From an uncultured Candidatus Saccharibacteria bacterium (lineage in GTDB: Bacteria; Patescibacteriota; Minisyncoccia; Phycocordibacterales; EsbW-18), in contig CAZWLQ010000005.1 of the NCBI GenBank assembly GCA_964634615.1, positions 1-40,527 of the forward strand: 40,527 nucleotides of DNA, read 5' to 3'. The translations under genes were made by a program, and so were the position numbers. Shown here piece after piece: positions 2,154 through 2,505 of this stretch. Each line of letters opens with the position of its first letter. Within the stretch, counting starts at the first letter, position 1. A model generated the notes under the pieces. That model saw only the letters and a program-made list of their open reading frames with translations. It was not told the DNA's origin and searched no databases.

Positions 2154-2173
2154 CCTGCCTGCCGGCAGGCAGG
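2154..2173. repeat. Perfect 20-nt palindrome cctgcctgccggcaggcagg (copy 1 of 2)
   Basis: An identical 20-mer recurs at 23004-23023. A weaker relative (ctgcc-ggga-ggcag) is at 32489-32502. Confidence 0.9.
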
Positions 2174-2261
2174 GAATCGGTCACAGACTTCTGTATTTTT
2201 GTATCCAAACGTTAGGAGTGAGTCTATTTTTTGAAATGCCTTGCGCAATGGGGCAGGAATC

Positions 2262-2355
2262 GGTCACAAATCACTAAGTCTTTTGTTCGCACTTAGTGCT
2301 CCAAAAGCCTAAGTGTTCGCGACCCCGCCTCGGCGCTCAGACCAGTGGCGCGCCT
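2262..2355 (-). repeat. Conserved ~90-nt element, copy B (inverted relative to copy A)
   Basis: The reverse complement aligns with 119-208 (54/57 at the start, 18/20 at the end). It is followed on the minus strand by gattcctgcccc, an 11-nt match to the tRNA-Met 3' region. Confidence 0.85.
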
Positions 2356-2388
2356 GTGGCCTGCAATTCCTGCTCCACACGCAAAATA

Positions 2389-2420
2389 GCAAAAACAAAA
2401 CGCCCCGAAGGGGGGCGCTC
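2389..2420 (-). terminator. Intrinsic terminator after tRNA-Met
   Basis: On the minus strand, stem cgcccc/ggggcg is followed by ttttgtttttgc. Confidence 0.75.
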
Positions 2421-2433
2421 TGTTTTTGTATTG

Positions 2434-2505
2434 TAGCGGGGGCAGGAATTGCACCTACGACCTTCAGGTTATGAGCCTGACGAGCTACTACTGCTCTACC
2501 CCGCA
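2434..2505 (-). tRNA. tRNA-Met (anticodon CAT), resembling the E. coli initiator tRNA as I recall it
   Basis: Minus strand reads tgcggggtagagcagtagtagctcgtcaggCTCATAAcctgaaggtcgtaggtgcaattcctgcccccgcta. Cloverleaf arms can be drawn. Position 1:72 is a T:T mismatch, the T-loop is atypical (tgcaatt), and CCA is not encoded. A lysidine-type Ile2 tRNA cannot be excluded. Confidence 0.85.

Follow-up and report, generated by a model that had tools for sequence, protein, structure and literature searches.

Two elements behind tRNA-Asp and tRNA-Met

The window, by which we mean the whole 40,527-nt stretch of DNA analyzed here, holds two copies of a small element, each on the same strand as a tRNA gene and directly 3' of it: element A (positions 99-231, plus strand) behind tRNA-Asp and element B (2250-2375, minus strand) behind tRNA-Met. 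An earlier, sequence-only reading had noticed the same small element at two different tRNAs, each time fused to the 3' end of its own tRNA. Every item of that description is present in the sequence, with a few adjustments given below; the first of the two tRNAs is tRNA-Met, and we identified the second as tRNA-Asp(GTC).

The window starts inside tRNA-Asp(GTC), whose 3' part (1-54, plus strand) matches the Rfam tRNA model with 39.4 bits over model positions 19-71 and carries the anticodon loop CUGUCAC; ARAGORN misses this edge-cut tRNA. A proximal direct repeat, CGAGTCCCGTCGATTCCGCAGAGT (37-60, plus strand), extends from the 3' part of the T-loop through the discriminator and 6 nt of trailer, and the exact 24-mer is found again at 208. 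The repeat is followed on the plus strand by a spacer S (61-99), in which the terminator scan detected an intrinsic-terminator-like hairpin (65-90) with a T-run, by an inverted arm I (GAGGGACGAGAA, 100-111) that is a decayed reverse complement of the T-loop and T-stem of tRNA-Asp, and by the core (AAGCCGGAGG ... GTGACCGA, 112-210), a predicted three-way junction with hairpins P1 and P3. A covariance model of the family (see below) matches positions 99-220 with 126.5 bits. The direct arm D (208-231, plus strand) is the distal copy of the tRNA-Asp 3' end, an exact repeat of its last 24 nt (37-60), and a terminator hairpin at 235-275 comes after it. In both the fold and the consensus structure, GGGAC of arm I pairs with GUCCC of the direct arm to form the closing stem. 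Spacer S is also the apex of a predicted long fold-back of the tRNA 3' part with arm I (z = -3.1 from tRNA position 54 to the arm end).

On the minus strand, tRNA-Met(CAT) (2433/2434-2505; ARAGORN; Rfam 61.4 bits) is initiator-like, with an unusual T-loop, TGCAATT, and a promoter-like site at 2545-2518. The order tRNA-Met, terminator, element B had been described before and is what we found: spacer S (2374-2433, minus strand) holds an intrinsic-terminator-like hairpin at 2428-2390 (terminator scan). The tRNA-Met 3' part, spacer S, and arm I together make one long imperfect palindrome (fold z = -10.1). Arm I of B (GCAGGAATTGCA, 2362-2373, minus strand) is the exact reverse complement of tRNA-Met TGCAATTCCTGC, that is, of the T-loop and the 3' strand of the T-stem. 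The inverted 12-mer pointed out earlier, TGCAATTCCTGC on the plus strand, is thus present and has its tRNA partner at 2442-2453 (minus strand), but it occupies 2362-2373 rather than 2361-2372. It is not incidental: it is the systematic inverted arm of the family, originally ~19 nt long. The core of B (GGCCACAGGCGCGCC ... GTGACCGA, 2260-2361, minus strand; fold z = -4.85) lies within a covariance-model match at 2375-2250 (117.9 bits). Its resemblance to core A over 2355-2262 (minus strand) is 54/57 in one block, as claimed, and 19/20 rather than 18/20 in the 3' block. The tRNA fragment that had been seen after ..GTGACC is GATTCCTGCCCC; the 11-mer ATTCCTGCCCC (2250-2260, minus strand) equals tRNA-Met 2439-2449 and, by this identity, is the direct arm D of B, a shortened copy of the T-loop, T-stem, and acceptor. 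The orthologous copy of B in locus L033 keeps 19-20 nt of its direct arm.

Past element B lies a 5'-truncated remnant of an older copy (2173-2249, minus strand), recognized by sequence match: a P3 3'-strand-like segment, AAAATACAGAAGTCT, and then GTGACCGATTCC (2184-2173). The latter is a second copy of the junction at 2256-2267. Its recurrence next to a palindrome had been reported correctly, although it sits at 2173-2184 rather than 2169-2185 and the palindrome measures 23 nt instead of 20. With element A included (one mismatch), GTGACCGATTCC has three matches against 0.19 expected, and none of 100 shuffles reached three. An analogous remnant is found in L034. The palindrome itself, the inverted repeat TCCCTGCCTGCCGGCAGGCAGGC (2153-2175, on neither strand in particular), interrupts the old direct arm just after ..TCC, recurs at 23002-23024, and represents a small repeat in its own right. 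L028 has a near-identical palindrome of 20 nt in the corresponding position (12301-12320).

A tRNA-linked family with a covarying core

We built a covariance model from seven copies and sampled ~±10 kb per genome, with relatives chosen either by exact sequence patterns or through one gene, RmuC. The earlier reading's CPR assignment was correct: the RmuC homologs carry the names Campbellbacteria, Paceibacterota, and Wolfebacteria. The model matched at 15 places in six element-bearing sources, of which 12 belong to the first set and three are new, and at three more in later loci; a repeat scan yielded one further, divergent copy. In this sample, the family comprises ~20 copies behind 12 kinds of tRNA in nine Patescibacteria genomes. 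The sequence-only reading had suggested such a model together with a tabulation of tRNA linkage. All matches lie 3' of a tRNA on the same strand, further copies do exist, and relatives show equal tRNA linkage. Each copy lies 14-82 nt downstream of its tRNA gene or stands behind another copy, and a fragment of its own tRNA follows it, except in the most decayed copies. Genome and metagenome scans contributed only one true new locus each (L001 and L028); L026 and L027 were rejected as chance matches within a coding sequence.

Controls were negative. The covariance model detected no family copy in ~1 Mb of unrelated DNA and had 0 matches in 700 kb of viral contigs sharing a 14-mer and in 17 further viral loci. 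Exact-pattern scans of viral contigs with three core patterns returned 0, 0, and 17 chance matches. The 14-mer junction pattern hit 111 viral-contig loci, and none of the 80 that were searched had a covariance-model match. Likewise, blastn against phage and plasmid records gave no element match, and no family copy was found in IMG/VR contigs. Over window positions 1-2600, Rfam 15 reported only the two tRNAs at both the gathering and E ≤ 10 thresholds, with nothing overlapping the cores and no match to the hammerhead, group I, tmRNA, or RNase P models; ARAGORN placed no tRNA or tmRNA at the elements. A full-text literature search retrieved no account of such elements. A and B belong to a family of miniature non-coding insertion elements for which we could not find a published description.

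The unit is multi-copy, non-coding, and ~130-220 bp in size, without an ORF, and is laid out in the order tRNA, spacer S (in many copies with a terminator hairpin), inverted copy I, a ~95-nt conserved core ending in GTGACCGA, and direct copy D. Arm I repeats the T-loop-to-3'-end part of the tRNA (positions ~54-73) in inverted orientation, and arm D is a direct 18-24-nt copy of the tRNA 3' end. The duplicated stretch begins at about position 57-59, ends 0-6 nt beyond the discriminator, and leaves the tRNA intact; direct repeats of 18-24 nt are exact in 13 of 16 tabulated copies. Arms match the adjoining tRNA for all 12 kinds. The inverted arm is exact over 16 nt at tRNA-Tyr and, if a conserved hairpin (P0) is passed over, extends to 19 nt in L028 Cys and to ~18 nt in L035 Met_i, but its outer, acceptor-mimicking part has decayed to 5-12 nt in most copies. 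No CCA is encoded in the units. In L149, the copy behind tRNA-Glu has arms made of the last 5 nt of the tRNA plus trailer; therefore, the T-loop is not always the junction.

Near-identical cores stand behind Asp, Met_i, Val, and Met_e, and subtypes are common to Lys and Tyr and to Leu(TAG) and Tyr. Cores are ~95% identical between genomes whose RmuC proteins are only 79% identical. The inverted arms differ at every tRNA, and at the spacer end there is no repeat corresponding to the core end. The two core junctions each come after CGA: ..TTCGA/AAGCCGG.. and ..GTGACCGA/N59 (the slash marks the junction).

The core fold is a three-way junction in which 93% of cells are paired. Compensatory (double) changes occur in 23 of 28 pairs (0/500 shuffles; slid controls, ~37%), and fold z-scores across copies range from -1.9 to -9.6. 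The hairpin of tRNA, S, and I scores from -3 to -10.5 in 12 of 13 copies. Modeling of the tRNA-sense strand shows two predicted pairings of arm I: it can pair upstream with the 3' part of the tRNA to give a long hairpin with S at the apex, or downstream with D, closing the three-way junction of P1 and P3. The unpaired junction nucleotides, TCGAAAGCCGGAG, CGAGGCGGGG, and GTGACCGA, are invariant. A pseudoknot between GGUC of the P1 loop and GACC was rejected, being without support in divergent copies. Chance had been thought unlikely from the window alone, and the junction and fold shuffles exclude it.

The wobble count (9 G.U versus 8 A.C cells, partly alignment noise) favors neither strand; only a single G.U, which by eye is conserved at the P3 base of at least eight copies, points to the tRNA-sense strand. 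P3 also has, again by eye, a conserved U.U mismatch and a bulged A. About half of the copies are behind strong intrinsic terminators; several others, namely Val, L030 Met_e, L035 Met_e, and Thr, have none between tRNA and element. Because A and B each lie behind a predicted terminator and have no promoter-like site, their transcription as a tRNA trailer is not favored on sequence grounds.

Insertion and turnover at tRNA genes

Sites with and without the element allowed us to establish what had been inserted. In L035, the 42-nt stretch beyond D is the ortholog of the native trailer at an empty tRNA-Met_e site in L031 (29/32 identical, 0/500 shuffles); against the empty tRNA-Met_e trailers of L034 and L029, 0/500 and 3/500 shuffles did as well, respectively. 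Spacer S of L035 is not orthologous to the native Met_e trailer. L029 is without an element at both Met_i and Asp, and a pair of Thr tRNAs that are 15 nt apart in L031 has an element between them in L035. These comparisons prove that the unit is a true insertion with target duplication, the inserted DNA relative to empty sites being S, I, and the core. The earlier word "displaced" suits the tRNA fragment, since it is the distal copy that has the native trailer behind it. At Met_i, the trailer of L029 compared with those of L033 and the window gave no significant indication of which copy is native, and an apparent CATATCC match there was discarded as chance; the Met_e site gave the decisive result.

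Copies are gained, stacked in tandem, duplicated, and eroded, and nested copies occur too. Behind tRNA-Tyr, two different subtypes stand in tandem, both with tRNA-Tyr arms, and behind tRNA-Leu(GAG) in L001 there are two identical 150-nt units. Truncated remnants are present in the window and in L034, the latter corresponding to L147 minus I and the core. The elements account for partial tRNA duplications and extra terminators in the tRNA operons of these genomes and for assembly breaks and rearrangements around their tRNA genes; the covariance model lets annotators mask or label such regions.

Mobile element, structured RNA, or remnant

On balance, we think it somewhat probable that these are non-autonomous, tRNA-gene-specific mobile elements that act as a folded single strand, with a mechanism that we can only propose. 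The element would move as a folded single strand, most likely of DNA, whose stem would be a double-stranded replica of the target from the T-loop through the acceptor end. The conserved junction could then serve as the handle for a trans-encoded enzyme, candidates being a hairpin-recognizing HUH/Y1 nuclease or a tyrosine recombinase acting in or beside the T-loop. At each insertion, the arms would be re-templated from the target tRNA gene, the direct arm from target duplication and the inverted arm from a fold-back copy. Insertions might be tolerated because the element-borne terminator and the restored 3' end would keep the tRNA functional. In favor of this explanation are the tRNA linkage, the arms matched to each tRNA, the empty orthologous sites, the turnover, the conserved fold, the lack of coding capacity, and the terminators ahead of A and B. 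Counting against it, we know of no transposition chemistry whose products are an inverted plus a direct target copy, the wobble count favors neither strand, the L149 arms show that the T-loop is not always the junction, and the conservation of unpaired junction nucleotides would suit a functional RNA as well. Near the elements, no integrase, transposase, or RT was found, Pfam recombinase domains were absent from the ORFs of the window, L028, and L001 (the neighbors are housekeeping genes), no autonomous partner turned up in viral, phage, and plasmid collections, and no excised or circular form was seen. Also in favor of mobility, the clade has an HUH/REP system, seen in L033, and Y1_Tnp ORFs occur in L031/L032 and L033, with none in the window; by blastn-short, however, the Y1_Tnp-associated REP (CTTGGAGGTTCAACCTCCAAG) is unrelated to the element.

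Two groups of systems resemble the proposed folded mobile element. First, in CTX-phi attP(+), with two inverted dif-like sites ~90 nt apart, and in integron attC, inverted target-like copies fold on one strand, as those of our elements (~95 nt apart) may do; the stem is a double-stranded target replica, and structure is conserved above arm sequence. Both are non-coding, like our elements, which would likewise depend on a trans-acting enzyme. However, the target here is a tRNA gene rather than dif or attI, the arms are tRNA sequence without R''/R' boxes (GTTRRRY) or XerC/XerD half-sites, and the conserved part is the intervening loop, not the stem, of a fold that is predicted. Second, the IS200/IS605 PATEs and the REPINs mobilized with RAYT are likewise small, non-coding, and hairpin-rich. 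HUH/Y1 hairpin elements have a simple hairpin on the left and a branched one on the right, as the family does (the Rep-nicked AAV inverted terminal repeat is similar by shape only). In IS608, too, both cleavage sites follow a short common motif (CGA here); a Rep nick site, like the tRNA T-arm, is a stem-loop with a conserved loop; and Y1_Tnp/REP systems occur in related genomes. Yet IS200/IS605 elements have fixed ends and no target duplication, whereas ours duplicate the tRNA 3' end, and REPIN arms are constant REP sequences, whereas the element arms vary and are unlike the REPs that flank the Y1_Tnp genes of related genomes; the window has no Y1 gene.

If the elements are mobile, they are the smallest tRNA-targeting insertion element known to us, with flanks rewritten at each new tRNA. 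They would pose the mechanistic problem of how insertion makes inverted plus direct target copies and would point to a trans-acting, structure-specific enzyme in Patescibacteria. We advance more tentatively the possibility that the core is a self-contained, target-programmable insertion module, gaining ~20 nt each of antisense and sense target tRNA per landing, so that the replica would guide or license the next T-loop recombination by a structure-specific enzyme; equivalently, the replica may be a mimic of that tRNA's acceptor/T minihelix. Such "arm re-templating" would be a new mode of target recognition for mobile DNA, intermediate in concept between folded attC/CTX sites, elements that carry guides (IS110 bridge RNA and IS605 guide sequences), and rolling-hairpin replicons, and it could provide CPR bacteria with a tRNA-specific decoy RNA.

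The alternative that survives best, though we rate it as rather unlikely, is that the unit functions primarily as a structured RNA, whose transcription would accompany or directly follow that of the tRNA, and that mobility is secondary. Helix I.D reproduces the acceptor/T-stem minihelix with the core in place of the T-loop, and in a "Cys-type" subfamily, hairpin P0 occupies the very spot from which a tRNA's D and anticodon arms would branch off. The RNA might be a tRNA mimic or decoy, a substrate for RNase P, RNase Z, the CCA-adding enzyme, or a synthetase, or an antisense regulator of its own tRNA via arm I. Covariation in several helices combined with invariant unpaired junction nucleotides is typical of RNAs, and the strong conservation of those nucleotides fits a functional RNA equally well. 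The G.U at the base of P3 and the U.U mismatch and bulged A within it point the same way, as do the constant orientation with the tRNA, the several copies without an intervening terminator, the arrest of D at the discriminator in nearly all copies, the combination of P0 with a complete acceptor-stem mimic in L028 Cys, L035 Met_i, and L147, and the conservation of cores beyond that of RmuC. Against this, about half of the copies, A and B among them, follow strong intrinsic terminators with no promoter-like site, the outer acceptor mimic of arm I has decayed in most, the model pairs show no excess of G.U over A.C, CCA is not encoded, and no Rfam family matched even at E ≤ 10. Patchy presence at orthologous tRNAs of close relatives, together with truncated remnants, argues against an indispensable function.

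Known tRNA-like structures (the tmRNA domain, viral 3' TLS, and plant mitochondrial t-elements) share with the elements an acceptor plus T-stem helix ending at the discriminator and, with one subfamily, a hairpin at the junction where the tRNA body would be. In the elements, by contrast, the core takes the place of the T-loop, CCA is not encoded, and neither ARAGORN nor Rfam recognizes them; moreover, each copy mimics the tRNA next door, and the mimicking part decays in most copies, being complete only in L028 Cys, L035 Met_i, and L147. If the elements were RNAs mimicking a tRNA minihelix, they would be a new class of tRNA-linked RNA in minimal-genome organisms. Both this and the mobile-element reading are directly testable in existing metagenomes and metatranscriptomes.

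It is improbable that the units are worn-down ends of large integrative elements inserted by a tyrosine integrase at the T-loop, such that the distal copy would be attR and the core an arm-binding region for integrase, IHF, and Xis, with a separate loss of the interior, integrase gene included, in every case. A tRNA 3' end repeated directly from the T-loop onward, an intact proximal tRNA, and tandem arrays reportedly typify tRNA-integrating elements (Williams 2002), and all are found here, along with the native trailer behind the distal copy. tRNA-gene islands, prophages, and CIMEs resemble our elements in inserting into the 3' part of the tRNA, which an element-side copy restores, in having an 18-24-nt direct repeat of the tRNA 3' end bounding the insert with the native trailer distal, and in accreting in tandem at one tRNA while older copies decay distally. 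But the ~20 units in nine genomes are all equally small (130-220 bp), with no cargo or integrase nearby; the earlier judgment that decay of two independent islands is unlikely holds up. One core serves at least 12 tRNAs with its repeats exchanged, whereas islands have one attP specificity and one tRNA target, and attP recombination alone cannot exchange arms in this way. The added inverted copy of the target and a core built as a covarying three-way junction, where a series of arm-type protein sites would be expected, are foreign to attP arms, and no copy appeared in IMG/VR contigs or in phage or plasmid records.

Two further kinds of element share some of these features with our family. Casposons also insert at tRNA 3' ends, produce target duplications of unusual length, and form tandem arrays with a shared repeat, but they are mostly archaeal and have terminal inverted repeats, a Cas1 casposase, polB, and 14-15-bp duplications, none of which is seen here. 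MITEs are equally small, non-coding, and multi-copy; the elements lack the constant terminal inverted repeats that MITEs share with an autonomous IS, and their arms differ per tRNA. MITEs have a short target duplication of fixed length; in our elements, a duplication is present as well, 18-24 nt long and anchored from the T-loop to the tRNA 3' end.

Least probable is an origin by error-prone replication without dedicated machinery, in which the strand would fold back or switch templates at two palindromes, the tRNA terminator and the T-loop TTCGAA, or by chance or local inverted duplication. The direct-inverted-direct order is the signature of two template switches, L148 has a palindrome of tRNA end, terminator, and inverted copy without a core, and the tandem identical units of L001 could stem from slippage between direct repeats. 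But such switching does not account for the insertion of one and the same covarying core of ~95 nt at the second of the switch points, behind 12 tRNAs in nine genomes, and replication error as the origin of the core is largely refuted. Chance is excluded by the shuffles, and a local inverted duplication of A and B is excluded because their arms are tRNA-specific and near-identical cores stand behind tRNA-Val and elongator tRNA-Met in other genomes.

Among other systems considered, a group I or archaeal-type T-loop intron was rejected, since the core matched no model and is much too small for one and since the proximal tRNA is intact as it stands. A homing guide of a CRISPR-associated transposon, an IS110 bridge RNA, and a TIGR array were set aside for want of associated genes or arrays; the one idea that the elements share with these three is that of sequences matching both strands of a target.

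Copies of the element behind tRNA genes

Each of the two copies in the window stands behind a tRNA gene and an intrinsic-terminator-like hairpin. On the plus strand, the 3' part of tRNA-Asp(GTC) (1-54, cut by the window edge) is followed by a hairpin (65-90) and core A (about 112-210); on the minus strand, tRNA-Met(CAT) (2433/2434-2505) is followed by a hairpin (2428-2390) and the homologous core B (about 2361-2260). The cores are identical at 54/57 and 19/20 positions in two conserved stretches; the sequence-only reading had the first count right and gave the second as 18/20. 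Both cores end in ..GTGACC(GA), and a tRNA copy follows immediately: in element A, CGAGTCCCGTCGATTCCGCAGAGT, an exact 24-nt repeat of the tRNA-Asp end with 6 trailer nt counted in (37-60 vs 208-231), and in element B, ATTCCTGCCCC, 11 nt of tRNA-Met. The proposal that one small element lies behind two different tRNAs, each with a copy of its own tRNA 3' end, is thus borne out. Junction GTGACCGATTCC does recur, at 2173-2184 rather than 2169-2185, and the inverted 12-mer of tRNA-Met lies at 2362-2373, one base off the original 2361-2372; both are above chance. A 5'-truncated older copy is distal to element B (2173-2249). No promoter-like site was found for element A or B, both of which lie behind terminators. 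The window's genes, for housekeeping and type IV pili, are ordinary for Patescibacteria. The tRNA-Met gene (2434-2505) adjoins rmuC and has a mismatched 1:72 pair, as expected of an initiator tRNA; its non-canonical T-loop (UGCAAUU instead of UUCRANY) is common to relatives L029, L030, L033, L034, and L147.

Exact-pattern scans of genome and metagenome collections yielded one true relative each: L001, a MAG labelled Saccharibacteria, with the element behind tRNA-Val, and L028, with a diverged copy after each of four consecutive tRNAs (Cys, Leu-TAA, Lys, and Leu-TAG). Further loci, syntenic for rmuC, were obtained via protein homologues; those of RmuC bear the names Campbellbacteria, Paceibacterota, and Wolfebacteria. 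A covariance model built on 7 copies found, in L028, two additional copies behind tRNA-Tyr, in L001 a tandem of two identical 150-nt units behind tRNA-Leu(GAG), and copies in the RmuC-syntenic loci L030 (elongator tRNA, Met_e), L033 (initiator-like tRNA, Met_i), L035 (Met_e and Met_i), L147 (Met_i), and L149 (Glu). A scan for tRNA-tail repeats picked up one more, divergent copy, which had escaped the model and lies behind the tRNA-Thr(GGT) of L035. Within the sampled DNA (about ±10 kb per genome, reached via one syntenic gene or exact patterns), the family spans 9 genomes and 12 tRNA kinds, with about 20 copies. All of them are located 3' of a tRNA and share its strand, so the linkage that a covariance search was meant to check extends to relatives. 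Run on roughly 1 Mb of unrelated sequence, among it 80 viral loci with a 14-mer also present in the core, the model had no match. No Rfam family matched the element even at E <= 10, no similarity was found in phage records, plasmid records, or IMG/VR, and full-text literature searches yielded no description of such an element.

Arms and core of the unit

All copies share one order: tRNA, spacer (S), inverted arm (I), core, and direct arm (D). Arm D repeats the end of the adjacent tRNA: it starts in the T-loop (about position 56-59), takes in the discriminator, and adds 0-6 nt of that gene's own trailer; its exact length is 18-24 nt, and CCA is never included. In Met_i copy B, whose T-loop is TGCAATT, D starts CGA|TTCC, hence CGA belongs to the element and position 59 is where the duplication begins. 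Arm I is the reverse complement of the same tRNA from position 53/54, with tRNA-specific T-loop bases (GCAGGAATTGCA for Met_i), and is exact over 5-16 nt in most copies. L028 Cys has all 19 nt of the copy (GGCCTGGG|hairpin|GGGGAATCGAA), and L035 Met_i and L147 Met_i have nearly all of it, which argues that I is a decaying full-length inverted copy. In the latter two, the boundary between acceptor and T-stem is exactly where a homologous hairpin of ~25 nt (P0) lies. A single long imperfect palindrome, capped by the "terminator", runs from tRNA position 54 across S to where I ends (fold z -3 to -10.5 in 12/13 copies). The repeats thus run direct (tRNA tail), inverted (I), core, direct (D), and I is predicted to pair either way. 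In the L149 tRNA-Glu copy, the arms are shifted to the extreme tRNA end plus trailer. Behind tRNA-Glu in L148 (9330-9400, minus) lies a long coreless palindrome, made up of the last 5 tRNA nt with trailer, a terminator hairpin, and the reverse complement of these; it may be left over from, or precede, the element that L149 has at this tRNA.

The core consists of AAGCCGGAGG, hairpin P1, CGAGGCGGGG, hairpin P3, and GTGACCGA, and together with the closing helix I.D is predicted to fold into a three-way junction. Both core junctions come after CGA (..TTCGA|AAGCC.. and ..GTGACCGA|N59). Across 14 distinct sequences, in a model-fitted alignment biased toward the structure, 93% of cells pair and 23/28 pairs show compensatory double changes; none of 500 shuffles was as good, and slid controls reached about 37%. 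RNAalifold on an independent MAFFT alignment recovered the same helices, with 14/28 pairs compensatory. Single-sequence fold z ranged from -1.9 to -9.6.

Such a core might belong to a functional RNA that mimics the acceptor/T minihelix of the neighbouring tRNA, a role that may coexist with mobility. Invariant unpaired nucleotides, conserved G.U, U.U, and bulged A, an orientation that never varies, and the existence of copies with no terminator fit this idea, but terminators are present, the acceptor-mimic part decays, the distribution is patchy, and there is no G.U excess; we consider it unlikely. Remnants of large integrative elements are still less probable, since the units are uniform (130-220 bp) and a single core serves 12 tRNAs; the sequence-only reading had likewise doubted independent island decay. 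A local inverted duplication of A and B, its own refuting alternative, is ruled out by the tRNA-specific arms and the copies in other genomes. Pure replication error or chance is scarcely credible.

Insertion, erosion, and rearrangement

Occupied and empty sites were compared. First, the 42 nt after D in L035 Met_e are orthologous to the native trailer directly behind the element-free tRNA-Met_e of relatives (L031, 29/32 identical and 0/500 shuffles; L034, 0/500; L029, 3/500), whereas spacer S has no such similarity to these trailers. What the occupied site has in addition to the empty ones is thus S, I, core, and a duplicate of the last ~20 tRNA nt. Second, L029, whose RmuC is 91% identical to that of the window, has empty orthologous sites at Met_i and Asp, and a tRNA-Thr pair lies 15 nt apart in L031 vs an element in between in L035. 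Without its elements, L028 would be a compact tRNA operon with 17-51-nt spacers. Third, the tandem behind tRNA-Tyr in L028 joins two different subtypes, one Lys-like and one Leu(TAG)-like (same genome), both with tRNA-Tyr arms; the subtype at Met_i differs between genomes; and L034 is the L147 locus with I and core deleted. Empty sites, tandems, remnants, and subtype differences together indicate that the element is an insertion subject to gain, stacking, and erosion, and not a fixed ancestral feature. The comparisons show a small non-coding unit whose insertion in the 3' part of a tRNA gene duplicates roughly positions 57/59 to 76, and which carries an inverted copy of the same tRNA segment and a conserved, covarying three-way-junction core.

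The tRNA neighbourhood that carries the elements is a hotspot of rearrangement. Among close relatives (the window, L029, L030, L031, and L035), tRNA-Met_i, the SIMPL gene, tRNA-Met_e, and tRNA-Asp vary in order and orientation; tRNA-Asp, for instance, faces SIMPL in the window and points away in L029. In L002-L006, which are from the window strain, all four Logan contigs with the identical RmuC stop at one base within tRNA-Met, and NCBI contig L006 spans exactly tRNA-Asp to tRNA-Met; assembly breaks at these tRNAs, probably because of tRNA k-mers common to community members.

Candidate mechanism and other repeats

We class the unit as a non-autonomous insertion element targeting tRNA genes. 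No integrase, transposase, or reverse transcriptase was found in the window or beside the L028 and L001 copies, and we lean towards an element mobilised in trans that moves, at tRNA genes, as a folded single strand. Its I.D stem, which in a fresh copy has up to 19 bp, would be a double-stranded replica of the target, and a structure-specific enzyme would bind the conserved junction. The gene-specific trailer bases of D and the tRNA-specific T-loop bases of I suggest the local tRNA gene as the template of both arms: D would be a target duplication and I a fold-back copy of the proximal tail; we know of no chemistry that does this. A tRNA gene has, in its T-arm, a stem-loop whose loop is near-universal; by analogy, this stem-loop and the CGA junctions recall hairpin-loop nicking by HUH/Rep/Y1 enzymes, and also the folded sites attP(+) of CTX-phi and attC of integrons. 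Target-matching arms as a categorically new mode of target recognition are a tentative idea, which we rather doubt.

Tandem accretion, tRNA-tail direct repeats, and a restored tRNA are shared with tRNA-integrating elements, but this unit lacks an integrase and is not confined to one target. Inverted target-like arms about 95 nt apart resemble CTX-phi attP(+) and attC, although R boxes and dif half-sites are missing. Hairpin-rich ends are also found in HUH-mobilised elements; unlike IS200/IS605, the element duplicates its target, and it has no constant terminal repeats. Casposons differ in having a casposase.

Y1_Tnp genes with their own REP hairpins are present in related genomes, and no sequence link between these hairpins or genes and the element was found. 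In L033 (8800-9600), a 213-aa Y1_Tnp (HUH, RAYT-like) ORF is flanked by palindrome CTTGGAGGTTCAACCTCCAAG (at least 5 copies, two within the ORF) and adjoins a yqeY remnant (53 aa vs 150 aa in relatives) beside an assembly gap; the hairpin (GGAGG TTCAA CCTCC) is similar to a tRNA T-arm. A related ORF lies at 5823-6506 in L031/L032. In L148 (1216-2560), a bAvd gene is beside a reverse transcriptase (RVT_1), the usual pair of a diversity-generating retroelement, and no tRNA-linked element core was detected at that locus.

The 23-nt palindrome TCCCTGCCTGCCGGCAGGCAGGC occurs in the window at 2153-2175 and 23002-23024 (100% identical, opposite orientation), one copy between two minus-strand genes and the other breaking an old direct arm just past ..TCC. 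A near-identical 20-nt palindrome (L028, 12301-12320) splits the direct arm of the Leu(TAG) element at the corresponding point; the palindrome has the look of a distinct REP-like mini-insertion preferring the direct-arm site. Two paralogous ~185-aa ORFs (23824-24396 and 24623-25177, within 23761-25319) have no Pfam match and are accompanied by repeated upstream and terminator segments (families D1, D2, and D4; 142 nt, 78% identity). Finally, repeated AT-rich segments (TTTGGAGCTTGGTGTTTGGAA and relatives; 28864-29626 and 36738-36842) occupy gaps between pilin-like (N_methyl) genes in the type IV pilus cluster, and an inverted copy is found at a distance of 7 kb.
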